NCBI GenBank assembly: GCA_036265105.1 | Contig: DATAPR010000055.1 | Location: forward strand, 42,229 to 106,228 | Length of the DNA: 64,000 nucleotides | DNA from: Sphingomicrobium sp. | GTDB lineage: Bacteria > Pseudomonadota > Alphaproteobacteria > Sphingomonadales > Sphingomonadaceae | Direction: 5' to 3' | Part shown: in pieces, positions 2,233 through 36,106 of the stretch | Layout: every line of letters begins with the position of its first letter | How positions within the stretch are numbered: the first letter of the stretch is position 1 | The notes under the pieces: model-generated | What the model saw: the letters and a program-made list of their open reading frames with translations, nothing else | What the model was told of the DNA's origin: nothing | Database searches by the model: none | Made by a program: the position numbers and the translations under genes

Positions 2233-3810
2233 TTGCCAGATACATTCGCGCCCCGGGCCGTCGCCGGCCCGGAACAGGCTCCGATAACCGACACGACTGA
2301 GAATCCCTCGCCGATAGAAAGCGTCGCTCCGGATTGGGGACGTGCAAAGAGCAGATGGCTGACGCTCGTGCTTCTTGCGATCTGCGCCGGCGCGCTGGCA
2401 GGCGCGATCCGAATCCATTTGGGAGCAGACCTCCTTCATCCGGACAGCCCGTCATATTACGTGTTCGACCCCTCTCGACCGGTCGGTTACCCAGCGTTCC
2501 TCTGGCTGGTTCAATCGCTCAGCGGCAATGTCTCGTGGGCGGCTCCAGCCCAAACCATCCTCGTCGCGATCGCGCTGTTCTTGCTTGGGCTTGCGATCTA
2601 CAGGGCGACGCGGCTCCCCTCGCTGGCGCTGGCGGCCCAGGTCGCGCTGGTATCGTCGGTCGGAATCTGGAACTTCTCGGCGGTAATCATGACAGAGGCG
2701 GTCGCGACTTCAGCCGTCGCGCTGTGGTGTGCTGCGCTGATCCGCAATCTCTTCAAGCCCAGGATTTTTGCAATCTTCGAGCTGATCGTGTTCGCGGCTA
2801 TCGCGACAACCATTCGGCCGGCGCTCGGGGCCCTGTTTGCTGGAACCGCCGTTTTGGCTCTCTTCCTTCCGCAGAGGCGCGAAAAGCTTATCGCGCTTTT
2901 GATGGTATTTGCCGGCTGCGGCGCGGCGTGGGAGGCGTCTCCGGTTGCGCAGTGGACCGTTCACGGATCGATGCACGCGGCAAGCCCATTTGCGCGGGGA
3001 ATTCTCCAGCATTCTTTATTCTGCCCTCTCGGGACGGCGCCCACGACAAGCGAGGGTCGCTTTGTCGAAAGCTACGCCGCGCCGGTTCGAAACTATGTCG
3101 ACCAGGCGCCTCCGGGCGCCCTCTCAAAGGTCCGGATTGAATACAGCACTCGCCTACGCTTCGGACTTATCATTCCCACATTGAGCAGGGTCCACGGGCT
3201 CTCGTGGGGCTGGCAGACCGACCCCTTGCTGCTTCAGATTGCAAAGGAGAGGATTCGCTCGAACCCTCTCTGTTTTGCTGGAAGCGTGCTGAATTCCTAC
3301 TTGAGGCTGGCAACCTTCGGGACGGGCGAAACGCCGCGTGACATCGCGGAGATCCGCACCTTTTTTGCAACTCACCCCCAGGTCCAGATCCCAAATCTTC
3401 CGACGCCGCCAGGCGAACAGAAAGAGGTCCGGCAGCTCGCAAGCGCGCTTCACCAACCGCTTCCCGAGGGCGGGCTCGCTGGTCACACGGCGAAGCTCCC
3501 CGAACATAATAGCCTCCCGGTGATCGTCCTCATGGAAATCATTTACGGTTTCGCTTCGATGTTCGGAATCGCGGCGCTTGGGGCGTGCGTGTTCGCGCGT
3601 CGGCTCCCGAACCGGCTCGCTCCGATCGTCTTGGCCGTGGCTGCGCTTGGAGCTGCCTATCACGGCGCAATGGCCATTACGGCTGTCGTGGAATTCGGGC
3701 TCTCCCGTTACCTGGTTCCGCTTTGGCCAATAGCAGTCTCGATCTGGGCGCTGACTGCGTTCGGGGCTTGGCAATGGGGATCATTCGAGACGGCCGTCCT
3801 CCGACGGTAG
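2233..3810 (+). CDS. Polytopic membrane protein, GT-C-fold glycosyltransferase-like
   Basis: Many hydrophobic helices; first loop 'HPDSPSY...RPVGYPAFL'; 'MTEA' and 'IRP' motifs; large periplasmic loop; terminal 'SRY'. Confidence 0.55.
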   Translation: MPDTFAPRAVAGPEQAPITDTTENPSPIESVAPDWGRAKSRWLTLVLLAICAGALAGAIRIHLGADLLHPDSPSYYVFDPSRPVGYPAFLWLVQSLSGNVSWAAPAQTILVAIALFLLGLAIYRATRLPSLALAAQVALVSSVGIWNFSAVIMTEAVATSAVALWCAALIRNLFKPRIFAIFELIVFAAIATTIRPALGALFAGTAVLALFLPQRREKLIALLMVFAGCGAAWEASPVAQWTVHGSMHAASPFARGILQHSLFCPLGTAPTTSEGRFVESYAAPVRNYVDQAPPGALSKVRIEYSTRLRFGLIIPTLSRVHGLSWGWQTDPLLLQIAKERIRSNPLCFAGSVLNSYLRLATFGTGETPRDIAEIRTFFATHPQVQIPNLPTPPGEQKEVRQLASALHQPLPEGGLAGHTAKLPEHNSLPVIVLMEIIYGFASMFGIAALGACVFARRLPNRLAPIVLAVAALGAAYHGAMAITAVVEFGLSRYLVPLWPIAVSIWALTAFGAWQWGSFETAVLRR

Positions 3811-5850: not shown

Positions 5851-5955
5851 AAGCGCGCAATTCCATCGGATCCATGTCAACAGCCAGAAATCGCTGCACG
5901 CCTGATGCGCGCTGAGGCGGGTTAGTGAATGTCGGAAAACTGTGGGAATCGGATC

Positions 5956-5980
5956 GGACCTGCCGCTCCTCGAAAGCGTT
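5956..5980 (+). promoter_or_regulatory. Putative EcfG/SigT general-stress promoter for the DUF6582 gene
   Basis: GGACC-N16-CGTT, one mismatch to the GGAAC-N16/17-CGTT consensus, 21 nt before the ATG at 6002. Confidence 0.45.
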
Positions 5981-6001
5981 TATCGGCGGAAGGAGAAAGT
6001 C

Positions 6002-6208
6002 ATGGCCAAGCTGTCATCATCCGACCGAAACAAACTCCCCAAGAGCAAATTCGCGGAACCTGGCAAGCGTGCTTATCCCGTCGAGGATGCATCTCATGCC
6101 CGCAACGCGAAGGCGCGGGCCAGCCAGGCGGTCAAGGCCGGCCGCATGTCCAAGGGCGAAGAAGCAAAAATAGACAAGAAAGCGAACGCAACTCTCAAGA
6201 AGGGATAG
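6002..6208 (+). CDS. Small basic DUF6582-like protein (68 aa)
   Basis: AAGGAG RBS; 'LPKSKFAEPGKRAYPVEDASHARNAKAR'; 18 of 68 residues are K/R. Confidence 0.75.
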   Translation: MAKLSSSDRNKLPKSKFAEPGKRAYPVEDASHARNAKARASQAVKAGRMSKGEEAKIDKKANATLKKG

Positions 6209-6252: not shown

Positions 6253-6807
6253 CTAAGGCTGGACCGTACGGAGCAACATGCTCGTATCATAGCCCATCGC
6301 CCGGGCCCTCCTGACCAGCTGACCAAACTCCTTCGCGCTCGGTGTTGCCTCGCGGGCGAGAATCCAAAGGTAACGTCCTGATGGTTCCCCGACGATCGAC
6401 CAGCTGTAATACTCTGCGTGATCCAGAACCCAATAATCGCCGTAGACTGGCCAGAAGAAACTCACTTTGAGCTTGGCGTTCGAAACGGGATCGACGAGTT
6501 TTGCGATCCCGCGGCTTTGCCGGATTTGGCCATCGGGCTTTCGGCATCGGTTCACCACATCGATCTTGCCGTCTGCGCGCTGGCTGTACGTCGCCGTCAC
6601 GCCTTCGCAGCCGAGCTCGAAGCGCTGTTCGTATCGGGCGATTTCATACCAGAGGCCAAGATAGCGATTGAGTTCAACCGGCGTTGCCGGTTGCGGAACG
6701 TTTCGATTGCCCACCGGATGCCTTCGAGCAAGGCTCATGCCAGCAGCGGCAAGGACGCCCGCCGCCGCGACAGAACTGCCGACCAGGACCCTGGCTTTAT
6801 TGGACAC
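6253..6807 (-). CDS. blc: Bacterial lipocalin (Blc family)
   Basis: 'VELNRYLGLWYEIARY', 'AKLKVSF', 'YWVLD...YSWSIVGEPSGRYLWILAR', 'GYDTS'. Confidence 0.9.
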   Translation of the reverse strand: MSNKARVLVGSSVAAAGVLAAAGMSLARRHPVGNRNVPQPATPVELNRYLGLWYEIARYEQRFELGCEGVTATYSQRADGKIDVVNRCRKPDGQIRQSRGIAKLVDPVSNAKLKVSFFWPVYGDYWVLDHAEYYSWSIVGEPSGRYLWILAREATPSAKEFGQLVRRARAMGYDTSMLLRTVQP

Positions 6808-7198: not shown

Positions 7199-7324
7199 TT
7201 AAGGATGCCGCTCCAGCAACTTGATGATCTGGTTGAGACGCTTTTCATTTTCGTAGGCGCTGACAGCGACCACCAGAGCAATGAATGCGCCAACGACGAT
7301 GATGACCCAATCCAGTTGGTCCAC
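7199..7324 (-). CDS. 41-aa single-pass membrane microprotein MDQLDWVIIVVGAFIALVVAVSAYENEKRLNQIIKLLERHP (absent from ORF track)
   Basis: Hand-translated; GGGAGA RBS before GTG 7324; TAA at 7199-7201; clean TM helix plus amphipathic tail. Confidence 0.6.
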   Translation of the reverse strand: MDQLDWVIIVVGAFIALVVAVSAYENEKRLNQIIKLLERHP

Positions 7325-7576: not shown

Positions 7577-7822
7577 TTAGCGGTCGTCGTCGCTACGATC
7601 AGCTTCGTCGCCGGCTTCTCGAGCTTCGTCCTTCATGCCGCCCCACATATTCTGGAGCTTGCCTTCGGCCTGATCGGCCTCGCCTTCGTGCTTCATCTTG
7701 GCGTCACCGAACAGCTTGCCGGCGCCTTCCTTCATCTTGCCGCCCATCTCCTTCATGCTGCCTTCGGTGCGGTCGTGATCAATTCCGTTTTTCATGTCCT
7801 CATGTGTGTCATGGTCATTCAT
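7577..7822 (-). CDS. csbD: CsbD-family general stress protein
   Basis: GGAGG RBS before ATG 7822; 'DRTEGSMKEMGGKMKEGAGKLFGDAKMKHEGEADQAEGKLQN-x-WGGMKD'. Confidence 0.9.
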   Translation of the reverse strand: MNDHDTHEDMKNGIDHDRTEGSMKEMGGKMKEGAGKLFGDAKMKHEGEADQAEGKLQNMWGGMKDEAREAGDEADRSDDDR

Positions 7823-7850
7823 GGTTTCCTCCATTCTTCAATGAAGGTTC

Positions 7851-7876
7851 AACGCTTCAGCGGCGGATTTCGTTCT
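7851..7876 (-). promoter_or_regulatory. Putative EcfG/SigT promoter of csbD
   Basis: AGAAC-N17-CGTT on the minus strand, 28 nt upstream of the ATG. Confidence 0.55.
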
Positions 7877-7925
7877 CCAATTTCCTGTTCGGTCGGACTG
7901 AACAAATAGTCGCCGAGGCGACAGA

Positions 7926-7951
7926 GGAACTCATTTCCAAGACCGAGGGTT
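7926..7951 (+). promoter_or_regulatory. EcfG/SigT-type promoter with no downstream ORF
   Basis: Exact GGAAC-N17-GGTT (7926-7930, 7948-7951). Confidence 0.65.
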
Positions 7952-7956
7952 ATCGG

Positions 7957-8047
7957 CCTGGCGTGCGGATTGTTGTGGATCGCCGCACGCCGATTTGTCT
8001 CCGTTTCCAAACTAGGCCCGTCTGCACCCCTTCAGGCGGGCCTTTTT
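7957..8047 (+). ncRNA. Candidate ~90-nt stress-induced small RNA (5' end approximate)
   Basis: EcfG-type promoter; 9-bp GC hairpin (7960-7968/7983-7991); 22-nt pyrimidine-rich linker containing UCUCC; terminator stem 8014-8043 with T-tract; no credible ORF. Confidence 0.55.
8014..8047 (+). terminator. Intrinsic terminator
   Basis: AGGCCCGTCTG/CAGGCGGGCCT stem (one G-U pair) followed by TTTT. Confidence 0.8.
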
Positions 8048-8205
8048 CTTGCCGCCCAGGTAGGTTGCCTCACTAGGAGCGATATCGCGATAACGCTGGG
8101 AGGAGGGGGCTCGGTGAGCCCCACTTGATAACCTCCGCTTTGCTCCAGTTCGGAAGCGCGCAAGGATGAAGCGGTTCGGTTGTGGATGACTCCGGGCCGC
8201 CTTGA

Positions 8206-8403
8206 TTATTGGTCGAGCTTTGGCCGTGTCTCTTCGTGGACGCCTATGGTGTCGGCCTCTTCTTCCAGTCTCTTGATATCGGCCTCGCCGCTGTCGATGA
8301 CCTGCTGCAGAGCATCGATCATTCGCTGGTCGTGGGCGAGACTGATGACCTTTCGAAGCTGTCGAACACGCGCTCGCATGTGGGCGATGAGGTCGCTACT
8401 CAT
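8206..8403 (-). CDS. Small helical hypothetical protein (65 aa)
   Basis: AGGGG RBS before ATG; coiled-coil-like composition. Confidence 0.55.
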   Translation of the reverse strand: MSSDLIAHMRARVRQLRKVISLAHDQRMIDALQQVIDSGEADIKRLEEEADTIGVHEETRPKLDQ

Positions 8404-8517
8404 CGCCGTCCCCTAGGAGCCATCGTTCGCCGCTTCAATTGAGGCTGATCAAGACTTGTCGGCTCGGCCTTCTTGCGGACCTGTTGCACAGTGCAGGAGG
8501 CGCCGACTCTGCTGGGG

Positions 8518-8724
8518 TCAGGGGAAGCCAAGCCTTCGTTCGATGAGGGCGAATCGCCGATCCGAGCGGAGCGGATCGAGAAACGGGTCGACCCGCATCG
8601 ATGCGAGGTCCGAATTTCGCGCAGTCCATGCCAATTCGAGCTCTTTGACCGAATCCTCAATCATCCCGAGCTGGGCATGGATCAGAGCATATTGGAAATG
8701 ATCCGCATCCCCATACGCGGACAT
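8518..8724 (-). pseudogene. C-terminal remnant of a TIR/TolB-TPR-type protein
   Basis: 'GDADHFQYALIHAQLG...DPFLDPLRSDRRF' is the typical final TPR/tail of that family; in-frame stop five codons upstream of the ATG. Confidence 0.55.
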
Positions 8725-8734
8725 CGTTTGCCAA

Positions 8735-8770
8735 AGTCAAATGTAGTCAACTTTAGTCAAATTGACTCAA
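8735..8770. repeat. Four 10-bp-phased AGTCAA hexamers with an overlapping inverted copy
   Basis: AGTCAA at 8735, 8745 and 8755, ACTCAA at 8765, TTGACT at 8762. Confidence 0.8.
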
Positions 8771-8958
8771 ATGGTTACTTGAGCGCACGGCATCCCTGCC
8801 GGGGCGGTTACGCGTTTGACGAGTCGATTGGGTGGGCACCGATCCTCGATTGGCCTTCTCTACGATTCTTTTGAGCGCGCTTGTCGTCCTGACCTGTGAT
8901 GAGTTTCCGCGTGGGCGGGTTTGGCTCGCGCGGCCATTCGACAAAGGGGGCCAGTTCG

Positions 8959-10038
8959 ATGTCAAACAGAACAAACGCGTTGCTTCGCACGGCGGCAGTT
9001 GCCGCCTTCATTCTACCTCTCGCGTTCACGGCAACGAGCGCAGGCGCTGCGACTGCCACACTCGTCGCCGATGGCTTCAACAATCCCCGCGAGCTCAAAT
9101 TCGGGCCGGATGGGGTGCTGTATGTCGCCGAAGGAGGAGTCAGCACCGGCGATTTGAGCACCATCGGAACATGCCCACAGGTTCCTGCGGTCGGTCCTTA
9201 TAAGGCGAGCGCGAGCGGGGGGCGCATTTCGAAGATCGTCAACGGCCAGCGGGTCACGGTCAATGACAGGTTCCCGAGCAGCGAAACCAGCGATGCCTCC
9301 GGGAATCTGACAAGCAGTGTCGCCGACATCGCGTGGATCGGAAAGACGATGTACGCGATCACTGCCGGCCTGGGCTGCTCGCATGGTCTTCAGAACACCG
9401 TGAACGGCGTTTACCGGATCAACGGCAATTCCCCACCGACGCTTGTCGCCGACCTCAGCGCATTCCAAATGGCGAACCCGACCGCCCAGGAATTCCTGGG
9501 TGACTTCGAGCCTGACGGCACCTGGTACAGCATGATCGCGATCCGCGGGGCGCTGTATGCCGTGGAGCCCAATCACGGCGAACTCGATCGTATCTCGACC
9601 AGCGGCGCGATCAGTCGCGTCGCCGATATCAGCGCAAGCCTGGGTCATATCGTTCCGACCGTCGTTGCTAGCCACGGCAACTTCTACGTGGCGAACCTTG
9701 GCACTTTTCCCATCCAGGGCAACTCGAAGGTCCTGAAGGTCACCCCAAGCGGCTATGTGACGCCGGTTGCATGGGGATTGAGTACAGTGCTCGGCATCGC
9801 GTTCGATAATCGCGATCGCATGTACGTGCTCGAAAATACGGTGGGCGCGCCCGGTCCGGCGCCGGGGGATGGCGACATCATCCGCATCGATCCCAACGGA
9901 AAGAAAACGATCATCATCAGCGGCCTCAACCTTCCGGGAGGAATGACAATGGGGCCGGACGGAGCCCTATACATCACCACCTGGAGCTTCGGCGGCGGCC
10001 CCGGAATGGGCCAGGTTTTTAAGGTGACGGGCCTCTAA
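8959..10038 (+). CDS. ScyD/ScyE-family secreted beta-propeller protein
   Basis: AAAGGGGG RBS before ATG 8959; signal peptide; 'ADGFNNPRELKFGPDGVLYVAEGG'; repeated GPDG-x-LY blades. Confidence 0.8.
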   Translation: MSNRTNALLRTAAVAAFILPLAFTATSAGAATATLVADGFNNPRELKFGPDGVLYVAEGGVSTGDLSTIGTCPQVPAVGPYKASASGGRISKIVNGQRVTVNDRFPSSETSDASGNLTSSVADIAWIGKTMYAITAGLGCSHGLQNTVNGVYRINGNSPPTLVADLSAFQMANPTAQEFLGDFEPDGTWYSMIAIRGALYAVEPNHGELDRISTSGAISRVADISASLGHIVPTVVASHGNFYVANLGTFPIQGNSKVLKVTPSGYVTPVAWGLSTVLGIAFDNRDRMYVLENTVGAPGPAPGDGDIIRIDPNGKKTIIISGLNLPGGMTMGPDGALYITTWSFGGGPGMGQVFKVTGL

Positions 10039-17579: not shown

Positions 17580-18566
17580 ATGACGTTCGAAGCCGACATT
17601 CGTCACGCGGCGGCGGGCTTGTGTCTGCCGAACCCTGTTCTTTCGATCGTAGTTCCGGTGAGGGATGAAGAAGACGCAATCCCAGTTTTCATCGACCGGG
17701 TCGTAAGCGTCGTCACGGCTTTGAACGACGCCGCTGCAGCGAGCTTCGAGATTCTGTTCATCGACGATGGCAGCGCCGATGGATCGCTCGACCTTTTGCG
17801 GAGCGCCAACGCCGTTGACGGGCGCATCCGGGTCCTGTCTTTTTCTCGCAATTTTGGAAAAGAGGCGGCACTCACCGCGGGACTCGACCATGCGCGCGGC
17901 GACGCCGTCGTGCCAATGGACGCGGACCTTCAGGACCCCCCTGAAGTGCTCGGCGCCATGATCGCAAAATGGCGGGAAGGTTTCGAAATCGTCGACGCAA
18001 TTCGGTCGAACCGAGAGGCGGACAGCGCTGGGAAACGGATCACCGCGCACCTTTTTTACAGGGCGCACAACCGTCTGAGCACCGACAAGATCCCCGAAAA
18101 TGCGGGAGATTTCCGCTTGCTCGACCGCAAAGTGGTGGACGTGATCCGGGCAATGCCCGAGCGTAGCCGCTTCATGAAGGGCCTGTTCGCGTGGCCGGGT
18201 TTTCGCCAGGCTGCCGTCACTTATGCTCGACAACCGAGACAGGTCGGAACCACGAAATTCGGTTATTGGAAACTGTGGACGTTCGCACTCGACGGGATCA
18301 CCGCGACTTCCACGCTGCCCCTGCGGGTATGGAGCTACGTTGGGGTATCGATTGCGGCGCTCGCTCTTGCCTATGCGTCTTTCATCGTCGCGAGGACGCT
18401 GATCTTCGGCATCGACGTACCGGGCTATGCATCGTTGATAGTCGCAATTCTGTTCTTGGGGGGGCTGCAATTGCTCTCACTAGGCATAATCGGGGAATAT
18501 ATTGGCCGCATCCTGGTCGAAACAAAACAGCGCCCGCTCTACGTTGTGCGCGAGCAAATCGGCTGA
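17580..18566 (+). CDS. gtrB: GT2 bactoprenol glycosyltransferase (GtrB/YfdH-like)
   Basis: 'FIDDGSADGS', 'FSRNFGKEAALTAGLD', 'DADLQDPP', 'GDFRLLDR', 'RFMKG', two C-terminal TM helices, 'GEYIGR...KQRPLY'. Confidence 0.9.
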   Translation: MTFEADIRHAAAGLCLPNPVLSIVVPVRDEEDAIPVFIDRVVSVVTALNDAAAASFEILFIDDGSADGSLDLLRSANAVDGRIRVLSFSRNFGKEAALTAGLDHARGDAVVPMDADLQDPPEVLGAMIAKWREGFEIVDAIRSNREADSAGKRITAHLFYRAHNRLSTDKIPENAGDFRLLDRKVVDVIRAMPERSRFMKGLFAWPGFRQAAVTYARQPRQVGTTKFGYWKLWTFALDGITATSTLPLRVWSYVGVSIAALALAYASFIVARTLIFGIDVPGYASLIVAILFLGGLQLLSLGIIGEYIGRILVETKQRPLYVVREQIG

Positions 18567-23628: not shown

Positions 23629-24549
23629 ATGATGTCACGTCAAACAATGATCGCACTGACTGGCGCGATCGTTTTGGGACTTATCGCGGTGTTCATCGCG
23701 AACTCGTATCTGAACGGCGCGCAGAAGCGTGCCTATGCGGGCGCGACGACGAAGGTCGCGGTCGCGAGCGCGCCGATGGCCTACGGAACCGTCATAACAC
23801 CTGACAAGGTGCGCTTTGCTGACTTTCCGAACTCAAGCATCCCGCCTGGGGCGTTTACCAACGAACAGCAGCTGCTGCCCGCCGGAAAGAAGCGCGTCGC
23901 GCTGATGGAGATCGGTGTCAACGAACCGATCCTGAAGGACAAGATATCGGGCGAAGGTGAGGGCGCATCGATCTCCGCGCTTCTTCCTGACGGAATGCGC
24001 GCGGCTACCGTTCGCATCAACGATGTTTCAGGCGTCGCGGGCTTCATCCAGCCAAACGATCATGTCGACGTTCTGATCACGCGCGACCTCGAAGGTGGCA
24101 ACGCCACTCAGGCAACGGATGTGCTGCTTCAGAACATTCGGGTCATGGCGATCGGCCAGCAGGCAAAGGACGCCAACGGAAAACCAATTTCAGCTCGAAC
24201 AGCAACTTTGGAGGTTGCGCCGATCGATGCACAAAAACTCGCGCTTGGCGAGGCGGCGGGCAGCTTGAGCCTCGTGCTCCGCAAGCCCGGCGAGCCGAGC
24301 AATCCAGTTGTCGAGACCGTCAGTCTCAATGACCTTCGCTACAACATGTACGGCGGTGCGCGCTATCCGGCGCCCGCGGTGGTCGGAAGCCTCGGCACGC
24401 CAGCGGTTCCTGCCGCGGCGCCAAGGCCAGTTCACCGCGTGGGTGTGATCAAAATTAGGCCCGTGCCGCCGGCCGACTTTGGCAAGCAGATCGAAGTGTA
24501 CCGCGGAACGAAGAGCGACCAGGTGAAGGTGGGGGAAAATGGGCGCTAA
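23629..24549 (+). CDS. cpaB: Flp pilus assembly protein CpaB/RcpC
   Basis: SAF-like region; 'GMRAATVRINDVSGVAGFIQPNDHVDVL', 'LLQNIRVMAIGQ'. Confidence 0.92.
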   Translation: MMSRQTMIALTGAIVLGLIAVFIANSYLNGAQKRAYAGATTKVAVASAPMAYGTVITPDKVRFADFPNSSIPPGAFTNEQQLLPAGKKRVALMEIGVNEPILKDKISGEGEGASISALLPDGMRAATVRINDVSGVAGFIQPNDHVDVLITRDLEGGNATQATDVLLQNIRVMAIGQQAKDANGKPISARTATLEVAPIDAQKLALGEAAGSLSLVLRKPGEPSNPVVETVSLNDLRYNMYGGARYPAPAVVGSLGTPAVPAAAPRPVHRVGVIKIRPVPPADFGKQIEVYRGTKSDQVKVGENGR

Positions 24550-26044
24550 GAAGCTGAAACGCTTTACGCTTTGCGCGGCGGCAGTCGGGGCGCTGCTCGC
24601 CGCGCATCCTGCGCTCGCGCAGGTCAGCGTGGCGACGAACATAAGTGCGGGCGAACTCGATGTTCCCGTGAACAAGAGCCAAGTGGTCCGCGTCGACCGC
24701 GCCTACTCCAAGGCGCTCATTGGCAATCCGGACATTGCCGATATCGTGCCGATCAGCGAGACTTCGGTTTACGTTCTTGGAAAGAAGACTGGCACAACCA
24801 GCCTGACGCTTTACGATCGTGCCAATCGTTTGATTGCGGTTGTGGACATTTCCGTTGGTCCCGATGTCACGAGCCTGAAGAGACAGCTAGCGCAGCTACT
24901 TCCGGCCGACGAGATCTCGGCGACGATGTCGAACGATTCGGTCGTGCTCCAGGGGATGGTGCCTAATGCAGTCGATGCCGATCGGGCTGTCCAGATCGCC
25001 GATACGTTCGCACCTGGCAAGGTCGTGAACCTGCTATCCTTGGGGTCAGCCCAACAAGTGATGCTGGACGTCCGCTTCGCCGAGGTGAAGCGCACGGCTC
25101 TTGCTCAGCTCGGGCTCAATTGGAGCGTACTCGGTGACACCGGCAAGCTGCAGGGTAATGTCGGTGATGGCACCAGCACCAGCACGTTTACGGATCCGAC
25201 AACTGGGCAAGTGCTCGGGTCACAAATCCTGCGCGGGAACGTTGCCGGCAGCTTCGCGATCATCTCCCGTACGTTCCGTGCGTTCGGAGCGAACTTCAAC
25301 GTCCAGCTGGATGCGCTCGAAAACAAAGGAGCGATCACGACGCTCGCGGAGCCTACGCTCGTCGCTTTGTCCGGCGAGACGGCGAGCTTCCTCGCTGGCG
25401 GTGAATTCCCAATTCCTGTCTCTCAAGGAAGCAGCGGCACCGCCGGGACGGCGATTACGGTCGAATTCAAGCCGTTCGGGGTAAGTCTTGCATTTACGCC
25501 GACCGTCTTGGCTGACGGTGTTATCAATCTTGTTGTCGAACCTGAGGTGAGCTCAATCGACCCTACTGCTTCGGTCACCATCAACGGCTTGACGATTCCA
25601 GGCCTTCAGACGCGCCGCGCAAAAACGACATTAGAAATCCGCGATGGTGAGAGCTTCGCTATGGCCGGCCTGATCCGCAAGGACTTCCAGGATACAGTTA
25701 AGCAAGTTCCGCTGCTCGGCTCGATACCGATCATTGGCGCGCTGTTCCGTTCCACGGGCTTCCAACACCAGGAGAACGAGCTCGTCATCATCGTCACGCC
25801 GCATTTGGTGCGGCCGGTGCCCGACGGAACCATGAAGTTGCCGACCGATCGCGTTGGGCCGCCAAACGAGGCTGACTTGCTGATCAATGGCCGCACGGAT
25901 ACCGGCGCCCCACCCGCCGCCCGGCCTTTTGTTCAGCCATCGCCATTCCCTCCGCCGCCTCCCCCCCCAACTGGTAGTTCGGGCGGAATGGCGCTCGCAA
26001 AACAGCCTTCGGGTTTCGAAAAGGACTATGGGCATGTCCTCTAA
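24539..26044 (+). CDS. cpaC: Tad secretin CpaC/RcpA
   Basis: 'IGNPDIAD', BON-like domain, 'QVMLDVRFAEV', 'LAEPTLVALSGETASFLAGGEFP', 'ELVIIVTP'. Confidence 0.93.
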   Translation: MGAKKLKRFTLCAAAVGALLAAHPALAQVSVATNISAGELDVPVNKSQVVRVDRAYSKALIGNPDIADIVPISETSVYVLGKKTGTTSLTLYDRANRLIAVVDISVGPDVTSLKRQLAQLLPADEISATMSNDSVVLQGMVPNAVDADRAVQIADTFAPGKVVNLLSLGSAQQVMLDVRFAEVKRTALAQLGLNWSVLGDTGKLQGNVGDGTSTSTFTDPTTGQVLGSQILRGNVAGSFAIISRTFRAFGANFNVQLDALENKGAITTLAEPTLVALSGETASFLAGGEFPIPVSQGSSGTAGTAITVEFKPFGVSLAFTPTVLADGVINLVVEPEVSSIDPTASVTINGLTIPGLQTRRAKTTLEIRDGESFAMAGLIRKDFQDTVKQVPLLGSIPIIGALFRSTGFQHQENELVIIVTPHLVRPVPDGTMKLPTDRVGPPNEADLLINGRTDTGAPPAARPFVQPSPFPPPPPPPTGSSGGMALAKQPSGFEKDYGHVL

Positions 26045-26327
26045 GCAACTCTGGATTGCGGTCGTCGGGTGCGCGGCGCTGGCGGGATGCAATACCGCGC
26101 AGACTCACATTGGGGATGAGGATCCGGGCCTCGGCGAAGCAGTGAAGTATGATGTGGCTATCCAGACCGTAAATCCAGCACCTGTGTACCCGGCGGACTC
26201 AACACAGCCCGGAAGCAATGGCGAGCTCGGAACGAAGGCGGTTGAGCGATACCGAACCGACAAAGTGAAAGCGCCTCAGGCGCAGAATCCCACCCGACCC
26301 GTCACGGGCAGTGGCGGACCCCAATGA
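26028..26327 (+). CDS. Small pilus-associated lipoprotein
   Basis: AAGGA RBS; lipobox 'LAGC'; sits inside the operon. Confidence 0.75.
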   Translation: MGMSSKQLWIAVVGCAALAGCNTAQTHIGDEDPGLGEAVKYDVAIQTVNPAPVYPADSTQPGSNGELGTKAVERYRTDKVKAPQAQNPTRPVTGSGGPQ

Positions 26328-26339
26328 GGATGCTGAGCA

Positions 26340-27977
26340 GTGAAGCACATTGCACGTTCGCTGTGGAGGAATATTGAGGGCGCGGTCGCGCCAACGGTAG
26401 CTCTTTCGCTCACCGCCCTCATCGCCGCGGGCGGCATCGCCTTCGATTACTCGCGCATGGCGACGATGGATACCGAACTGCAAACAGCGGCCGATCAGGC
26501 TGCCCTCGCAGCGGCGGCTCAGCTTGATGGTGGCACGACCGCATGCAAGCGCGCTGTCGCGGCAGCCCAAGGGATGGTCGCGAATCAGACACTGATGGCA
26601 AATGACAATCTCGGTACGTCGGTGACCGTGCCAGATCCTGGTGTCTGCAACGACGACGGGAGCATAACCTTTAGTGCGACTGCGAGCGTACGGTTTTACA
26701 AAGACGTCGACAAGACTCAGCCCGCCGACGATAGCAGCAACGCAAAATTTGTCGAAGTTCAGGTGGCCGACCGACAGGCAAATTATGCTCTGACCCCGAT
26801 CGTGGCCGCGTTCAGATCTGGTGAAATGCATGCGATTGCTTTTGCGGGTCTCAATTCTGCGATCTGCAAAGTGCCGCCTTTGATGATGTGCAATCCCAAC
26901 GAGACCAGTGATCCGGACTTCACGATCGGGAATTACGTCGGCAAAGGCATCCGTCTCGTTTCGAACGATGGCGGAGGTAGTTACGGGCCCGGCAACTTCG
27001 GATTTCTGGACGCGGGAGCGGGAAACGGCGCGTCGACACTTCGGCAACTGCTTGGAAATCTAAACGTACCAGGCAACTGTACGGCAGGTGACGGTGTCAC
27101 CACAGAGCCGGGAAATCTGATCTCGGTCCGCGACGCTCTGAACACTAGATTTGGAGTTTACGACAACGGACTTAATCAGGCCTGCGGCAGCGGCGATGGT
27201 CAGTGTCCTCCTTCTGCGAACATTCGCAAGGACCTGCTGCTCAGGGGCAACGGCGCCAATCTAAACAAGTTGGGCTTCATCACCGGCAATGGCGGCAACG
27301 GCTGGGTTGAAGCATCCAACCCGTATCCCGGGGCTACAAACATCACTGCGGGCGGCGCGTATCACAGTTTGAGCGACACGGAGATCAGCGCGATATCGCC
27401 GATGGGCTACCCGGAGGATGAGTGTCATTCATTCACATCGGGTGGCACCGGAATTTGCACCAACGGCCGCATTGGGGACGGCAATTGGGACCGTTACGCA
27501 TACTTCAAATCGAATTCACAAAACTATAGCGTTACTTCGGCGAATATCAGCACGTTCCTGACCAGCACTTTTGGGACGGCGACCCCAACACGATTCCAGG
27601 TCTACCAATATGAAATGAACAACGCCGCGACCCGCTTGAAGTCGCAAGCGAGCGGGTCGCTGAGCTCTATCTCGAATCCGGCACTTCTCACACTTGAGCC
27701 CGGTGGAATTTCTCCAAGCTCCACGCAGATCGACCGGCGCGTCCTTACTGTCGCGGTAGTCGACTGCACAGCAGAGGGAGTTAAGGGGCACAGCACGGGC
27801 GTCGGGGTGACGAAATGGGTCGACGTCTTTCTGGTACAGCCTTCGGAGGCGCGAACGACTGGTGTGCGCACCTCAAACAGCGACATCTATGTTGAGATGA
27901 TCGGCCAAACCCAGAACGCTACTGATCAGGGGGCAGTACAGCTCGTCAAGAAGAGCGTGCCGTACTTGATCCAATGA
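26340..27977 (+). CDS. tadG: TadG-like pilus tip/minor pilin protein
   Basis: 'G|AVAPTVAL', 'DYSRMATMDTELQTAADQAALAAA'; Cys/Gly/Asn-rich C-terminal domain. Confidence 0.8.
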   Translation: MKHIARSLWRNIEGAVAPTVALSLTALIAAGGIAFDYSRMATMDTELQTAADQAALAAAAQLDGGTTACKRAVAAAQGMVANQTLMANDNLGTSVTVPDPGVCNDDGSITFSATASVRFYKDVDKTQPADDSSNAKFVEVQVADRQANYALTPIVAAFRSGEMHAIAFAGLNSAICKVPPLMMCNPNETSDPDFTIGNYVGKGIRLVSNDGGGSYGPGNFGFLDAGAGNGASTLRQLLGNLNVPGNCTAGDGVTTEPGNLISVRDALNTRFGVYDNGLNQACGSGDGQCPPSANIRKDLLLRGNGANLNKLGFITGNGGNGWVEASNPYPGATNITAGGAYHSLSDTEISAISPMGYPEDECHSFTSGGTGICTNGRIGDGNWDRYAYFKSNSQNYSVTSANISTFLTSTFGTATPTRFQVYQYEMNNAATRLKSQASGSLSSISNPALLTLEPGGISPSSTQIDRRVLTVAVVDCTAEGVKGHSTGVGVTKWVDVFLVQPSEARTTGVRTSNSDIYVEMIGQTQNATDQGAVQLVKKSVPYLIQ

Positions 27978-28489
27978 TTAGTCTGCTTCCCTCCCTCGCG
28001 AGGAACCGAGGCGGTTCCGCTGCAGTCGAGTTGGCGCTCGTAATACCCTTCCTTCTCACGCTCATGCTCGGCGCCGTCGATTTGGGAAATTATTTCCTGT
28101 CCGAGCATGTCGTCGACAAGGCAGTTCGCGATTCCGCACGGTACGCAGCCCGCCTTCCCTTCGTAGATTTTGACTGTGATTCCGGAACAATGACTGATCC
28201 ATCCACCGTGCAGAAGTTGGCCCGCACTGGCGATCCGGCTGGAACCGTGGCCCGTTTAGCTGGATGGACGAGCGACGGGATGACTTCTGTGACCGTCAGC
28301 TGCGACACGGACACGTCGCACATATACGTAAACAATGGAATTTACGCAGATTTTCCAAACGGGGGCGAAGCGCCTACCGTCACAGTCTCTGCGACGGTCC
28401 CCTACAATTCTCTCTTTGGTTCCATAGGGCTCGGCCGGGTGACGCTGAACCTGTACGCCCAGAGCCAGGCCGCGGTGATCGGCTCATGA
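27974..28489 (+). CDS. tadE: TadE-like pseudopilin
   Basis: 'G|SAAVELALVIPFLL', 'AVRDSARYAA'. Confidence 0.85.
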   Translation: MISLLPSLARNRGGSAAVELALVIPFLLTLMLGAVDLGNYFLSEHVVDKAVRDSARYAARLPFVDFDCDSGTMTDPSTVQKLARTGDPAGTVARLAGWTSDGMTSVTVSCDTDTSHIYVNNGIYADFPNGGEAPTVTVSATVPYNSLFGSIGLGRVTLNLYAQSQAAVIGS

Positions 28490-29130
28490 GAGTGATGCTT
28501 TACATTCTTCTTCGAAATCAGCGGGCAGCGGTCGGCGCCGAGTTTGCGCTCGTTTTGCCGCTTCTGCTGATTCTTCTTTTCGGTGTTATCGACGGTGGCC
28601 GTTTCCTCTGGGAGTGCAACGAAGCCGAGAAAGCCACACAAATGGGCGTCCGATACGCGGTAGTGACCGATCCAGTTGCATCTGCTTTGAAGGGGCCGGC
28701 GGACGGGGGCTACAGTTTCTCTGTCAGTGACGGAATTACCCAGGGAACAGTGGTTCCGACCGCGAATTTCGACAATGCTTCTTGCAACAATAGCACATGT
28801 TCTTGCGCGCCGAGCGGCGGAGGGATTTGTGGTGCGATTGGATACGACACGACCGAGTTCAACCGCATCGCCACCCGGATGGCGGCGATGTACGCGCCTA
28901 TCCAAGCCTCCAATGTTCAGGTGGTCTACAAGAACGTAGGCCTCGGATTTGCGGGGGATCCCGACAATCCGAATGTGTCCACTCTTGTGACAGTCAAATT
29001 AACGGGACTGACTTTTCAGCCACTTACGTGTCTGGTGTTCGCTTGCTCCATTTCGATGCCCGATTTCGCGGCTTCGCTGACGCTCGAGGACGCGTCGGAC
29101 AATGGTCAGAGCCCGCCAATAGCCAATTAA
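28486..29130 (+). CDS. TadE/TadF-like pseudopilin
   Basis: 'AAVGAEFALVLPLL', 'KATQMGVRYAVV'; ATGA-coupled start at 28486. Confidence 0.82.
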   Translation: MRVMLYILLRNQRAAVGAEFALVLPLLLILLFGVIDGGRFLWECNEAEKATQMGVRYAVVTDPVASALKGPADGGYSFSVSDGITQGTVVPTANFDNASCNNSTCSCAPSGGGICGAIGYDTTEFNRIATRMAAMYAPIQASNVQVVYKNVGLGFAGDPDNPNVSTLVTVKLTGLTFQPLTCLVFACSISMPDFAASLTLEDASDNGQSPPIAN

Positions 29131-29139
29131 GGAAACATC

Positions 29140-30345
29140 TTGAGCGTCATCAATCCCAACGAAACGGCCCTCAATTGGAAGGCAAGCAAGCGCGAGCAGG
29201 CAGTCCACCTGTACCTAAGCGGCGCCGACGGGGACGCGGCTGAGCTCGCCGCAGCTCGGGTCGCCGGCTTGCCGATCTATCTCAACGTCATTCCGACCTC
29301 CGACTGGATCAATCCAGAGGAACTGAGCGGCGCGGCGGCAGCCGTAATTCAGGTGGATTCCGATAGCGCTGCCTCGATCAAACGTTTCCAGAAGCTCGCA
29401 AGCGCAGTGGAGACGCCGCTGATAGCCGCCTCCTACGAGCCGCCCCTGGCACTCGTTCGATCGCTCATTCGAGCGGGAGCGCATGACGTAGTCCCGCTTC
29501 CGCTGAACTTCGAGGATGTCGAAACATCTCTTGGCCCGCTGATCGAGGACCTTAAACGCCGCCGGTCGGAAGCGGGCATCGCCAGGAATGCAAAGCTCGT
29601 CAGCTTCATCAAAGGCGACGGCGGAGTCGGGGCGACCGCGATCATGTCCCAGCTCGCCATTCGATTCGCGGAGCGCGAGGCTGCGCACAGGCGGGAAACC
29701 TGTCTAATCGATCTCGACGTGCAGTTCGGCGATGTGGCATTCCAGCTCGGATTGCAGCCGAAGCTCTCACTGATCGAGCTGCTGGATGCTGGTGCTCGCC
29801 TCGACGGAGATCTCGTTCGTGCTACCACAACGGACCATGCAAGCGGGCTCAAGGTCATCGCCTCGCCGCCTGAGATGATGCCACTGGAGGGAATCCAAGG
29901 GGACCACGTACTGCGGGTAGTGGACCAGGCGACGCGGGAATTCGGGACGGTGTTTGTCGATCTTCCGAGCAACTGGACGAACTGGTCTCTTTCTCTCGTG
30001 GCGCGGTCGGACCTCGTCATCCTCGTGACGGAGCTGACCGTCACAGGTCTCAATCGCGCTCGCCGCCAGCTGAGCCTTCTGGATTCGCAGGACCTAGGCA
30101 ATCTTGATGTCCGAGTAGTGGTAAATCGGTTTGAGAAGAGCCTCGCGCGGACGATCAGTTTAGCTGACGCTAGTCAGGCGCTCGGTCGCGAGGTCGGATA
30201 TACTATCGCCAACGATTACCAGTTGATGTGTGCCGCGATCGACCGTGGAGTGCCGATCAGGGAGGTCAAGCGCAAGACGGCCGTCGCTAGGGACCTTGAT
30301 ACTCTGGATGCCGGGATAGCCGCGACGCTCGGATTGGGACGGTGA
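29140..30345 (+). CDS. cpaE: CpaE/TadZ MinD-like localisation ATPase
   Basis: Degenerate receiver domain; deviant Walker A 'KGDGGVGAT'; 'LIDLDVQFGD'. Confidence 0.9.
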   Translation: MSVINPNETALNWKASKREQAVHLYLSGADGDAAELAAARVAGLPIYLNVIPTSDWINPEELSGAAAAVIQVDSDSAASIKRFQKLASAVETPLIAASYEPPLALVRSLIRAGAHDVVPLPLNFEDVETSLGPLIEDLKRRRSEAGIARNAKLVSFIKGDGGVGATAIMSQLAIRFAEREAAHRRETCLIDLDVQFGDVAFQLGLQPKLSLIELLDAGARLDGDLVRATTTDHASGLKVIASPPEMMPLEGIQGDHVLRVVDQATREFGTVFVDLPSNWTNWSLSLVARSDLVILVTELTVTGLNRARRQLSLLDSQDLGNLDVRVVVNRFEKSLARTISLADASQALGREVGYTIANDYQLMCAAIDRGVPIREVKRKTAVARDLDTLDAGIAATLGLGR

Positions 30346-31739
30346 GTATGTGGCAGATCCGTAAGCCGACCCGGACCGCCGCAGACGGCGATGAGGCGGC
30401 CCATCGCGCTTCCGAAGAGCACAGGCTCGTAACAGTCGGGGATGCGGGCGCGTTCGGGCACCGAGACAAGCATACTGAGCTCAAAGTCGAGCTGCACCAG
30501 CGGCTCATCGATCTGATCAACCTGCCGGCGCTTGAAAAAATGTCGCGTCAGCAGATCGAGGCGGAAGTCGGTGACATCGTTGCCGAGGAACTCGCCAAAC
30601 AGAATGAGGCTCTGAATCAGTCCGAGCGCAAGCAGCTTGTGGGCGATGTGCTTGACGAGCTTCTCGGCCTCGGCCCACTTGAGCCGCTGCTCAAAGACCC
30701 GACGATTACCGACATCCTCGTCAATGGGCACGATCATGTTTTCGTCGAGCGCTATGGTGTGCTTGAGCCGAGCGGCTCCCGGTTCAAAGATGAAAAGCAC
30801 CTTGTCCGGATTATCCAGAAGATTGTCTCGGCTGTTGGCCGCCGGATCGATGAATCCTCGCCGATGGTCGATGCTCGCCTGGCCGATGGAAGCCGCGTCA
30901 ATGCTGTCGTTCCTCCGCTCGCACTCGACGGCTCCCTCCTCTCAATCCGCAAATTCGCGCGCGTCCCGATCAGCATGGATCGTCTCGTCGAGATTGGCAG
31001 CGTTCCGCTCCAAGTCGCCGAGGTCTTGAAAGCGATCGTCGGCTCAAGGCGGAATGTCCTGATTTCAGGCGGCACTGGATCGGGCAAAACAACTCTTCTG
31101 AATGCCATGTCGGCGTTCATCGATGCCCGCGAACGGATCGTCACTATCGAGGACTCCGCGGAGCTCCAATTGCAACAGGAGCATGTGGTCAGGTTGGAAA
31201 CCCGGCCCGCCAACATCGAGGGCAAGGGCGAAATCGCACAGCGTGACCTAGTCAAGAACGCGCTGCGGATGCGCCCTGACAGGATTATCGTCGGGGAAGT
31301 CCGTGCCGGAGAAGCCTTCGACATGCTGCAGGCAATGAACACGGGCCATGAAGGGTCGATGACTACAGTGCACGCGAACACTCCGCGCGACGCACTGTCC
31401 CGCGTAGAGCAGATGATAGGCATGAGCGGCATCGACATTCCGCCTCGCTCCTCGCGCGCACAAATTTCATCTGCGCTCAACGTCGTCGTGCAGGTCGCGA
31501 GGCTGGCCGATGGGCGGCGCAAGGTCATCAGCGTCTCTGAGCTGACCGGCATGGAGGGAGAGGTCATCACGATGCAGGAAATCTTCCGCTTCCGGCAGAG
31601 CGGCGTCAGCAGTGAGGGGATCGTTCAGGGTCGCTTCGAAGCAACGGGCATTCGGCCGCGCTTTCTCGAACAGGTGATGTCGCACGGAATGACATTGTCG
31701 GCGGATCTGTTTCGGCCGGATACGAAGTTCGACGCATGA
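30342..31739 (+). CDS. cpaF: CpaF/TadA pilus assembly ATPase
   Basis: 'GGTGSGKTT', 'TIEDSAEL', 'ALRMRPDRIIVGEVR', 'NTGHEGS'. Confidence 0.95.
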   Translation: MSMWQIRKPTRTAADGDEAAHRASEEHRLVTVGDAGAFGHRDKHTELKVELHQRLIDLINLPALEKMSRQQIEAEVGDIVAEELAKQNEALNQSERKQLVGDVLDELLGLGPLEPLLKDPTITDILVNGHDHVFVERYGVLEPSGSRFKDEKHLVRIIQKIVSAVGRRIDESSPMVDARLADGSRVNAVVPPLALDGSLLSIRKFARVPISMDRLVEIGSVPLQVAEVLKAIVGSRRNVLISGGTGSGKTTLLNAMSAFIDARERIVTIEDSAELQLQQEHVVRLETRPANIEGKGEIAQRDLVKNALRMRPDRIIVGEVRAGEAFDMLQAMNTGHEGSMTTVHANTPRDALSRVEQMIGMSGIDIPPRSSRAQISSALNVVVQVARLADGRRKVISVSELTGMEGEVITMQEIFRFRQSGVSSEGIVQGRFEATGIRPRFLEQVMSHGMTLSADLFRPDTKFDA

Positions 31740-32740
31740 GTCCGACCTGGATCCGGACGTTCATCCTCGTCCTTATCTTTGCTGCTGCAGCTCTCGCCGG
31801 GGAGAGCTTACTCCGCGCCTACGCCACCGCGCGGGCGGAGGGGCGCGCGATCAACTTACGCCTGACGCTCATCGGCCGCGGCCGGACTCACGGCGAAGCA
31901 ATGAACATTCTTCGACGCGCCAATACGTCGATACCAAAGGGTCTTCCCCCCTTCCTGAACGATATCGCTCAGCGATTCGAGCGCATGCTGATGCAGGCTC
32001 AGCTGATCATCCCGACGGGACGGCTAATGCTCTTCATTTTGATTGCGCCCTTCGCAATATTCTTCGGGTTGCTTCTCCTGATGTCGGCCTGGTGGGGGAT
32101 GGGCGCGAGCATCGGACGGATTGTTATTAGCGCTGCGTTCGCGCTGCTACTTGGAGCGATCCTCCCGCTCATGGCGATAAACTTCAAGGCCAGCCGGACT
32201 CGCAAGCGGATGGAGGAACAATTCCCGGTTGCGCTTGACGTCTTCGTTCGAGGTCTGCGCGCAGGACACCCGATTGCTGCGGCGCTTGAGTTGCTGACGA
32301 TTGAAATGCCTGATCCTATCGGTTCGCAATTCGGACTTGCGGTCGACGAGGTCACCTACGGCGCCGAGCTTCGCGACGCGCTTCAAAACATGGCCGAACG
32401 ATGGGATCTCGACGACATGCGTATGTTTGTCGTTTCCCTGTCGGTGCAGAACGAGACCGGCGGCAATCTCGCCGAGATTCTTGAGAATCTCTCGAAGGTC
32501 GTGCGCGATCGTCATGCGATGATGCTGAAAGTGCGAGCACTTTCGAGTGAGGGGCGTATGACAGCGGTGATGCTGACCGCTCTGCCAATCTTGTCCTTCA
32601 CGGCGCTATTCATGGTGAACGCCCGGTTCTTCCTGGACGTCGCTGACGATCCAATGTTTGTGCCGGGTTTTGCAATATTGATTACTCTTTATGTCATCGG
32701 ATTCGTATGGATCCGGAAGCTGGTCGATTTGAAAGTATGA
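31736..32740 (+). CDS. tadB: TadB inner-membrane platform protein
   Basis: 'EQFPVALD...LRAGHP', 'ETGGNLAEIL', 'ALSSEGR'. Confidence 0.92.
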   Translation: MSPTWIRTFILVLIFAAAALAGESLLRAYATARAEGRAINLRLTLIGRGRTHGEAMNILRRANTSIPKGLPPFLNDIAQRFERMLMQAQLIIPTGRLMLFILIAPFAIFFGLLLLMSAWWGMGASIGRIVISAAFALLLGAILPLMAINFKASRTRKRMEEQFPVALDVFVRGLRAGHPIAAALELLTIEMPDPIGSQFGLAVDEVTYGAELRDALQNMAERWDLDDMRMFVVSLSVQNETGGNLAEILENLSKVVRDRHAMMLKVRALSSEGRMTAVMLTALPILSFTALFMVNARFFLDVADDPMFVPGFAILITLYVIGFVWIRKLVDLKV

Positions 32741-32743
32741 TCA

Positions 32744-33721
32744 ATGGTTGAACTTGTTGCCGAAAATCCTCTTCTCAGGCTGTTGCTGTTGCTTCTCCTG
32801 TTCACGTTTGTCGCCATCGCGGTCTATTTGATCACTCAAACCTTCTCAGCGAAGCAGCTCGCCAGAGAGAGGCTTCTCGAGCCAGTGAGCATGGGGCCTG
32901 GAACGCCAGCGCTAGGATCCCTGCGCGCCGAACGGACAGAGAGCGCGTGGCTGAGACTCGTCAACACCATAGAGAGCCGCGGCCTCAGTCTCGTCGATAC
33001 GAAGGATGTGGCCCTTCGCCAAAAGCTGATCGCTGCCGGTTATCCCGCACCGTATGCTCCCCGGCTCTACACGCTCGTCCGTCTCGTGTCGGTTGTCTTA
33101 CTTCCGATCATGGTCCTGATTTTCTTTTGGCTTACGGCTTCGAGCCCGGGCACGATCAAGCTCTATTTTTCCTTGATCATCGCGGCCGCGATGGGGCTTT
33201 ACCTCCCGTCGTTATTCATTCGCGCCAAGGCGGATCGCCGGCAGCGTGAGCTTATCAACGCCTTCCCTGACGCGCTGGACCTGATGTTGGTCTGCGTAGA
33301 AGCTGGGCTCAGCCTTGAAGCTGCATTCTCCCGCGTCGGCATGGAAATGACCACCTCGCATCCCTTGCTCGCCGAGCAATTTGGCGCAGTCGTTCTCGAA
33401 CTCCGGGCCGGTCGCAGCATCGAGGATGCACTTCGCCGGCTGGCCGACCGGGCCGGCGCCGATGACATCCGGGCATTCGCGACATTGCTTATCCAGTCGA
33501 CCAAGCTCGGATCATCCATTTCTCAGACGCTACGCACCTATGCTGCCGAGATGCGTGAAAAGCGCAGAATGAGAGCCGAAGAGAAAGCCCATCGCCTGCC
33601 CGTGCTCATTTCGATTCCGCTGGTTGCCTGCATGCTTCCAACGATGATTGGCGTTCTCATGCTTCCCGCGGCGATCCGGGTCATACGGGGGGTAATTCCG
33701 GCACTTCACGGGGGAGGATAG
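32744..33721 (+). CDS. tadC: TadC inner-membrane platform protein
   Basis: 'FPDALDLMLVCVEAGLSLE', 'AEEKA', 'IPL...LP'. Confidence 0.92.
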   Translation: MVELVAENPLLRLLLLLLLFTFVAIAVYLITQTFSAKQLARERLLEPVSMGPGTPALGSLRAERTESAWLRLVNTIESRGLSLVDTKDVALRQKLIAAGYPAPYAPRLYTLVRLVSVVLLPIMVLIFFWLTASSPGTIKLYFSLIIAAAMGLYLPSLFIRAKADRRQRELINAFPDALDLMLVCVEAGLSLEAAFSRVGMEMTTSHPLLAEQFGAVVLELRAGRSIEDALRRLADRAGADDIRAFATLLIQSTKLGSSISQTLRTYAAEMREKRRMRAEEKAHRLPVLISIPLVACMLPTMIGVLMLPAAIRVIRGVIPALHGGG

Positions 33722-33722
33722 A

Positions 33723-35285: not shown

Positions 35286-36106
35286 TCCTCATCCTTTTGG
35301 CCGCAGCGAGCGTTGCAGCGCAGAAGCCCCCAGCGACACCGCCGCCAACCGCACCTCCTGATCCATCTATTCTCAACGATGCTTCCCAGGCGATCGATTC
35401 CGGGAGGATCGAGGAGGCGACGATCCTCATCGCTCGGGCGATCTCGGAAGGGTTTCGGGGAGCTCCGATCGAGCGACTGACGGCGAATGTCTCGTTCGCG
35501 TCCGGCAAGTATCTGGAGGCGTTCGTCGCCTACCAACATCTCGCGAAATCTTCCGACAAGCAGATCGGCGACTGCGAGAAGGGTGCCATTGCAGCGCTGC
35601 AGCTCGGCAGGGTTGATGATGCACGGCCACTCGTCGAGTGCGCAGTCGCAAACGACCGTCCCTCGTGGCGAGCGTGGAATGCGCGCGGTGTTCTTGCCGA
35701 TTTCACGAACGACTGGAAAGGCGCGGACGAAGCCTATGCTCGCGCCCATGAGCTCGCTCCAAAGGAAGCCCGCATCATCAACAACCAGGGCTGGTCGAAG
35801 CTTCTACGCGGCGACTGGGCTGCAGCTGTTCCCTTCTTCGAAGAAGCCACGTCTCTCGACCCTAAGTCGGAGCGCATCGCCAACAATCTCGAGCTCGCTA
35901 AGGAAGCGCTCGCAGCCGATCTTCCTCAACGGGGGGCTGGCGAAAGCGATCATGACTGGGCGGTTCGCCTCAATGATGCCGGCGTCGCCGCGGAGCTGCT
36001 GGGCGACAAGCAGCGCGCGATCGCGGCATTCTCTCAGGCTCTCGACGCAAGTCCGGCGTGGTACGACCGAGCTTCGAACAACCTCAAAGCGGTGAGCCAG
36101 AATTGA
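35282..36106 (+). CDS. TadD/CpaO-like TPR protein
   Basis: 'AWNARGVLAD', 'NNQGWSKLLRG', 'NNLELA'. Confidence 0.8.
   Translation: MILILLAAASVAAQKPPATPPPTAPPDPSILNDASQAIDSGRIEEATILIARAISEGFRGAPIERLTANVSFASGKYLEAFVAYQHLAKSSDKQIGDCEKGAIAALQLGRVDDARPLVECAVANDRPSWRAWNARGVLADFTNDWKGADEAYARAHELAPKEARIINNQGWSKLLRGDWAAAVPFFEEATSLDPKSERIANNLELAKEALAADLPQRGAGESDHDWAVRLNDAGVAAELLGDKQRAIAAFSQALDASPAWYDRASNNLKAVSQN

Follow-up and report, generated by a model that had tools for sequence, protein, structure and literature searches.

Does the gap behind csbD in a Sphingomicrobium sp. genome hold a small RNA gene governed by the general stress response? Within the stretch of DNA analysed here (the window, 64,000 nt), this gap is free of called genes, and a candidate unit lies in it back to back with csbD (Table 1). 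Small stress-type genes are found nearby: Pfam identifies a DUF6582 gene and a lipocalin gene in addition to csbD itself. sRNA genes with EcfG-type promoters are well known from Caulobacter and Sinorhizobium (PMC5869019, PMC3616915); two studies of sphingomonad EcfG regulons defined these from protein-coding genes only (PMC6599016, PMC7083833). The closest named relatives of the window proteins come from Sphingomicrobium MAGs (ScyD, 86% identity; CsbD, 67-70%), a genus of the order Sphingomonadales, so that "sphingomonad", as the host was called in the original prediction, is a reasonable label.

The original prediction described an exact GGAAC-N17-GGTT promoter (7926-7951), a 9-bp GC hairpin, an exposed pyrimidine-rich linker of 22 nt with the word UCUCC, and an intrinsic terminator: together a unit of about 90 nt, divergent from csbD and devoid of coding potential. 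All of these elements are present, the hairpin being one closing U-G pair longer, and no coding-like ORF lies across 7835-8205. The 5' hairpin begins 8-9 nt past the -10 element; its stem pairs GGCGUGCGG (7960-7968) with CCGCACGCC (7983-7991) and closes on the G/U-rich loop AUUGUUGUGGAUCG. The linker is predicted to be unpaired, with ensemble probabilities of 0.83-0.98 over 7993-8008. The terminator hairpin (8014-8043) folds at -21.0 kcal/mol (z = -4.95) and is followed by UUUUUCUU. As a whole the unit (7957-8049) folds at -40.2 kcal/mol (z = -4.46), which is matched by 0 of 200 shuffled sequences.

Table 1. Positions and properties of the candidate unit, its neighbours and other features of the window.
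Feature	Position	Strand	Remarks
DUF6582 gene	5942-6208		small stress-type gene
Lipocalin gene	6253-6807		small stress-type gene
41-aa ORF	7199-7324	-	one hydrophobic helix; downstream of csbD
csbD	7577-7822	-	81 aa, Pfam CsbD; typical general-stress gene
Mechanical ORF	7804-8076		90 aa; crosses the unit
csbD promoter	7851-7875	-	EcfG-type, GAAC-N17-CGTT; divergent from the candidate's promoter
-35 element of candidate	7926-7930	+	GGAAC, exact EcfG-type match
-10 element of candidate	7948-7951	+	GGTT, 17 nt after the -35 element
Predicted transcript	7958-8049	+	about 90-92 nt; predicted start 6-9 nt after the -10 element, end in the U-tract
5' hairpin	7959-7992	+	10 pairs, -19.2 kcal/mol, z about -3.8; pair probabilities near 1
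Mechanical ORF	7970-8128		52 aa; crosses the unit
Linker	7992-8013	+	GAUUUGUCUCCGUUUCCAAACU; 15 of 22 pyrimidines, with UCUCC and GUUUCC; unpaired part about 21 nt (7993-8013)
Intrinsic terminator	8014-8049	+	11-pair hairpin (8014-8043), loop CACCCCUU, then UUUUUCU
Hairpin GGGGCUC/GAGCCCC	8079-8122	-	overlaps the anti-Shine-Dalgarno-like run CCCCCUCCUCCC
Perfect palindrome	8079-8088		GCGATATCGC; after the GGGGCUC/GAGCCCC hairpin
65-aa gene	8206-8403	-	convergent with the unit; next feature downstream of it
ORF	8473-8874	+	no Pfam match; overlaps the next ORF; in this region the gene caller picked a 127-aa ORF on contig L001 (strand equivalent to plus)
68-aa ORF	8518-8724	-	no Pfam match; looks like a C-terminal piece of a TPR-type protein and may be a gene remnant
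scyD	8896-10038	+	ScyD/ScyE family; about 850 nt downstream of the unit
Family-2 glycosyltransferase gene	17580-18566	+	
Second GGAAC-N17-GGTT	17631-17656	-	antisense within the glycosyltransferase gene
Rest of window	23629-36627, 37195-52173, 53163-63858		Tad pilus; type I secretion; conjugation
Hairpin and T5 terminator	34194-34225	-	between the last tad gene (end 33721) and ORF 34390-34881

This arrangement looks like an independent, non-coding transcription unit that starts at an EcfG-type promoter and is bounded by an intrinsic terminator. The predicted build, with its start-proximal 5' hairpin, exposed C/U stretch and U-tailed terminator, is that typical of base-pairing sRNAs, and the linker (7993-8013) is a putative seed. 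The features of the Hfq class are likewise present: an A/U-rich stretch (AAACUA) upstream, the terminator hairpin, and the U-tail UUUUUCUU.

The promoter motif matches the alphaproteobacterial general-stress (EcfG) consensus, GGAAC-N16/17-(C/G)GTT, and is suitably placed before the predicted 5' end of the RNA. Promoters of identical architecture, GGAAC-N17-GGTT, are EcfG-dependent in Sphingomonas melonis Fr1 (PMC6599016, Table 1). Judged by the promoter motif alone, the unit would thus belong to the EcfG regulon. The motif by itself occurs at chance level, twice in the window against 1.8 copies expected, and the second copy, within the glycosyltransferase gene, is most likely a chance match.

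The csbD promoter on the other strand provides a point of reference. The -35 elements of the two promoters are 50 bp apart, and both have a spacer of 17 nt. The csbD motif, GAACGAA...GCGTTGA, is kept upstream of csbD in all nine relatives examined (L002, L008, L010, L090, L091, L093, L185, L186, and L187), with a spacer of 16 nt in at least four of those counted (L002, L008, L091, and L185); the similarity among these upstream regions ends just upstream of the -35 element. The general-stress promoter of csbD is therefore old, and the divergent unit is not shared. The ribosome-binding site of csbD reads GGAGGAAAC.

The frequency of the bare motif gives weight to a first alternative: that the promoter motif is a chance occurrence or is unused, no plus-strand RNA is made, and the hairpin at 8014-8043 is the 3' end signal of the 65-aa gene or a two-way terminator. 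AAC...GTT motifs are partly palindromic, moreover, and the stop codon of that gene precedes the hairpin by 163 nt. Against this, the hairpin is built for the plus strand. Read on the minus strand it is weaker (-17.8 kcal/mol), with an A-C mismatch in place of the plus-strand G-U pair, and it is followed by UAGUUUGG; the U-tract is found on the plus strand only. No comparable terminator accompanies the homologues of the 65-aa gene. The combination of elements also argues against accident. This terminator is the sole perfect canonical one found in a scan of the 64 kb, and, with no plus-strand gene upstream, a transcript is needed for it to terminate. In the preceding 150 nt of the same strand the motif is expected 0.002 times (0.01 times for a looser motif), and the pairing of motif and terminator is unique to this site in the roughly 150 kb scanned (the window and the loci of relatives). 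It is improbable that motif, hairpin, and terminator should be placed together in this way by chance. We regard this alternative as unlikely.

If the unit is transcribed, is it shared with other sphingomonads? Homologues were sought in vain next to csbD and next to the 65-aa gene in relatives, with linker words, and in plasmids, and these locus, exact-word, and plasmid searches brought to light no conservation with structure-preserving changes among relatives. The csbD synteny search covered the loci of nine csbD homologues and of the window's own protein, which gave L001 only; this contig, from a Logan assembly, is the only other one to carry the exact csbD protein, and being 100% identical across the region it carries no information. 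In the csbD relatives (73-82% protein identity) the unit is absent: nhmmer, BLAST, and a covariance model built from a single sequence (R1) returned terminator look-alikes only, and other genes or unrelated sequence stand upstream of csbD. The 65-aa gene has homologues (up to 86% identity) that adjoin cox genes, with no such unit nearby.

Searches independent of synteny gave the same picture. The 17-mer linker word TTTGTCTCCGTTTCCAA had 78 matches in 185,579 species genomes, all in unrelated contexts, against about 69 expected. In the JGI metagenomes the 22-mer linker word had no match and the 17-mer TGTCTCCGTTTCCAAAC had 78, which is chance level. Such exact-word scans detect perfectly conserved linkers only, so that diverged homologues would be missed. 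BLAST against plasmids returned csbD coding matches and two similar terminators only, the latter downstream of DUF736 genes on Sphingopyxis and Porphyrobacter plasmids.

The neighbouring scyD gene has relatives far closer than those of csbD (82% at most) or of the 65-aa gene (86% at most): two are 91% and 88% identical (on contigs of 136 and 331 kb), and a third, in a Sphingomicrobium MAG, 86%. Because no database entry exceeds 82% identity for CsbD or 86% for the 65-aa protein, the protein matches suggest that the block comprising csbD, the candidate, and the 65-aa gene is absent or diverged in these close scyD relatives. Given this disparity, the block may be a recent insertion or a fast-changing islet.

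The original prediction placed the unit in the sphingomonad general stress response, as an sRNA arm. Part of that interpretation stands: the unit looks non-coding and terminator-bounded, has an EcfG-type promoter, and belongs to no Rfam family. The notion of a conserved sphingomonad sRNA arm is not supported, since no relative or collection searched yielded a homologue; an orphan candidate is not evidence for such a general arm. What is left as the best reading, with a chance of being right that we put at about even, is a strain- or species-specific (orphan) sRNA gene driven by EcfG.

From this anatomy we infer a transcript, its EcfG dependence, a trans-acting function, and targets, along the following lines. 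Under general stress, RNA polymerase carrying EcfG would start at about 7958-7960, downstream of the GGAAC-N17-GGTT motif, and csbD would be co-induced with the sRNA from the shared divergent control region. Transcription would stop at the intrinsic terminator. The resulting non-coding RNA, of about 90 nt, would have a protective hairpin at its 5' end, then about 21 nt of exposed C/U-rich sequence, and last the U-tailed terminator. It would most likely act by base pairing between the exposed stretch and purine-rich sites in mRNAs, for example ribosome-binding sites, possibly helped by Hfq. The words UCUCC and GUUUCC could pair with ribosome-binding sites of the GGAGA or GGAAAC type, and the C-rich terminator loop might also take part. 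Linker duplexes were computed against 48 5' regions, all within the window. The best reached -20.5 kcal/mol, and 196 of 200 shuffled linkers did at least as well, a result that is uninformative either way on an anti-Shine-Dalgarno seed. It is possible, though on balance doubtful, that the unit is the first EcfG-dependent trans-acting sRNA of Sphingomonadales: a young, lineage-specific riboregulator, born beside csbD, that supplies the activator-only general-stress sigma factor with a repressing arm by pairing its exposed UCUCC/GUUUCC stretch, and perhaps the C-rich loop of the terminator, with ribosome-binding sites.

A second alternative concedes transcription and denies function. The unit could be a relic or by-product in a rearrangement-prone spot: the promoter and terminator left by a lost stress gene, or a terminator that insulates the 65-aa gene, with a short RNA that would lack any regulatory target. 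The unit is unique to the window's genome, and the relatives of both flanking genes have different neighbourhoods; a gene fragment (8518-8724) lies close by, and the duplex scan of the window's 5' regions showed no target signal. The structure speaks for the opposite view. The 5' hairpin stands at the exact predicted 5' end, and a clean unpaired stretch separates two stable helices. This hairpin-linker-helix build is usual for working sRNAs, and a deletion scar would not be expected to yield it. Nor does the unit show any trace of a decayed reading frame, as judged by a protein search with the 90-aa ORF that crosses it, a search that served also as a proxy for conserved DNA. A relic is thus improbable as an explanation, and an orphan sRNA gene is preferred.

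Might this orphan sRNA be a known RNA in disguise? Rfam at gathering thresholds matched no family anywhere in the window, in agreement with the original prediction, which recognised no named family and called for this search. Permissive scans of the region returned sub-threshold matches only: the betaproteobacterial toxic sRNA RF02278 (22.9 bits, gathering value 50), its central hairpin deleted in the alignment; Atu_C4 RF02499 (17.9 bits, gathering value 80); mmgR/SuhB RF00519 (17.4 and 16.8 bits, gathering value 41); and ar14 RF02344, a family with CCUCCUCCC loops (16.2 bits on the plus and 15.6 bits on the minus strand, gathering value 58.8). That the unit is a diverged member of one of these four families is very unlikely: the matches are driven by GUUUCC or UCUCC plus the terminator, the scores all lie far under the gathering values, and the alignments delete the family-defining CCUCC-type loops.

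The mmgR/SuhB family deserves a closer comparison. Both the family and the candidate are alphaproteobacterial and have a single-stranded U/C-rich stretch (GUUUCC...) right before the terminator, but the candidate lacks the family's conserved CUCCC core and its first hairpin. SuhB is Hfq-associated, and no other sRNA of Sphingopyxis granuli TFA has been characterised; it is activated there by a LysR-type regulator, not by EcfG, and its regulon is largely separate from that of EcfG (bioRxiv 10.64898/2025.12.09.693200).

A coding role for the unit, as the gene of a very small protein, is barely credible, and so is a role as leader for a plus-strand gene further on: two mechanical ORFs do cross the region, but both lack a ribosome-binding site, run past the terminator, and are not coding-like in composition; the 90-aa ORF had just two matches among 1.84 billion representative proteins, both long proteins aligned in many short stretches, which we read as repeat or low-complexity noise; and what follows the unit downstream is an opposite-strand gene.

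How does an orphan, EcfG-driven sRNA compare with characterised systems? GsrN of Caulobacter crescentus is a sigma-T/EcfG-dependent sRNA (PMC5869019). Both GsrN and the candidate are non-coding, about 100 nt long, and preceded by an EcfG-type promoter that fits the consensus; GsrN adds a post-transcriptional layer to the general stress response. GsrN pairs through an exposed pyrimidine-rich sequence; the exposed pyrimidine-rich linker of the candidate would do likewise. The two differ in the 5' hairpin, which in GsrN carries the defining C-rich loop and in the candidate the G/U-rich AUUGUUGUGGAUCG; the sole C-rich loop of the candidate is that of its terminator, unlike GsrN. Genes of the GsrN type usually, although not always, adjoin phyR-nepR-ecfG. 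No such locus was seen among 50 window ORFs in Pfam scans, which found no sigma-70 or PhyR-type domain and would miss small nepR-like ORFs. BLAST matches to GsrN are confined to Caulobacteraceae, and no gsrN-like gene was seen in Erythrobacter litoralis, a member of the Sphingomonadales (PMC5869019). The Rfam scans of the window gave no GsrN match, and the comparison drawn here is with the published description of GsrN.

The RpoE2 (sigma-E2) sRNAs of Sinorhizobium meliloti offer a second comparison. In that species 23 sRNAs have predicted sigma-E2 promoters, eight of them with expression evidence; these too are short, intergenic, and preceded by a GGAAC...GTT general-stress promoter (PMC3616915). 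Most of them, like the candidate, are without known function. The RpoE2 sRNAs have mapped 5' ends and array evidence, whereas the candidate is known from its sequence, and no sequence relationship was found between them.

In enterobacteria, the sigma-E-dependent sRNAs MicA, RybB, and MicL provide an activator-only ECF sigma factor with a repressing arm. Each is transcribed from its own ECF promoter and ends at an intrinsic terminator, and all are conserved across genera. The candidate would share this logic, but the sigma factor and the phylum are different, there is no sequence similarity, and the candidate is not conserved.

If real, the unit would extend to Sphingomonadales the pattern of general-stress sigma factors with their own sRNAs, seen in GsrN and the RpoE2-dependent sRNAs; since the unit lacks conservation, little can be learnt from it about sphingomonads as a group. 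It is of use mainly as a clean candidate that lends itself to testing, and it may be an instance of an sRNA gene born recently beside a conserved stress promoter. Were this true, it would be an example of how new sRNA genes arise next to existing stress promoters.

Several minor observations were made along the way. Beyond the terminator, where the 3' region of the 65-aa gene lies, the minus-strand hairpin at 8079-8122 might belong to a 3'UTR or bind a protein. The CCUCCUCCC motif suggested a minus-strand RNA over 8005-8205, which was considered and rejected: its fold is unremarkable (z = -1.27) and its ar14 score is just 15.6 bits. At the position that corresponds to the 41-aa ORF on the far side of csbD, the relative L091 also has a called gene of 41 aa (3011-3136).

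Several csbD relatives show a strong minus-strand terminator pointing at the csbD end (L002, 2770-2850; L185, 559-633; L186, 629-703; also L003). It has the form GGCCCGGCGG...CCGCCGGGCC GUUUUCCUUUU and lies inside a gap of about 600 nt without a called gene. There may be a convergent non-coding RNA in these relatives, not homologous to the window's unit. In L097, GGAAC-N16-CGTT occurs on the plus strand (about 996-1021), some 120 nt upstream of the cytochrome oxidase subunit II gene that adjoins the 65-aa gene homologue, so that in this relative an EcfG-type promoter may serve the cox operon.

The remainder of the window carries, in addition to glycosyltransferases, a Tad/Flp pilus cluster (RcpC, secretin, CpaF-type ATPase, TadB/C, and prepilin peptidase). 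The good hairpin and T5 terminator that follow the last tad gene have no obvious minus-strand gene feeding into them. A type I secretion set is made up of a 2965-aa protein and, after it, an outer-membrane factor, an ABC transporter, and HlyD. Conjugation genes for a VirD4/TraG coupling protein and VirB8 suggest an integrated or plasmid-like element at the right end of the window.
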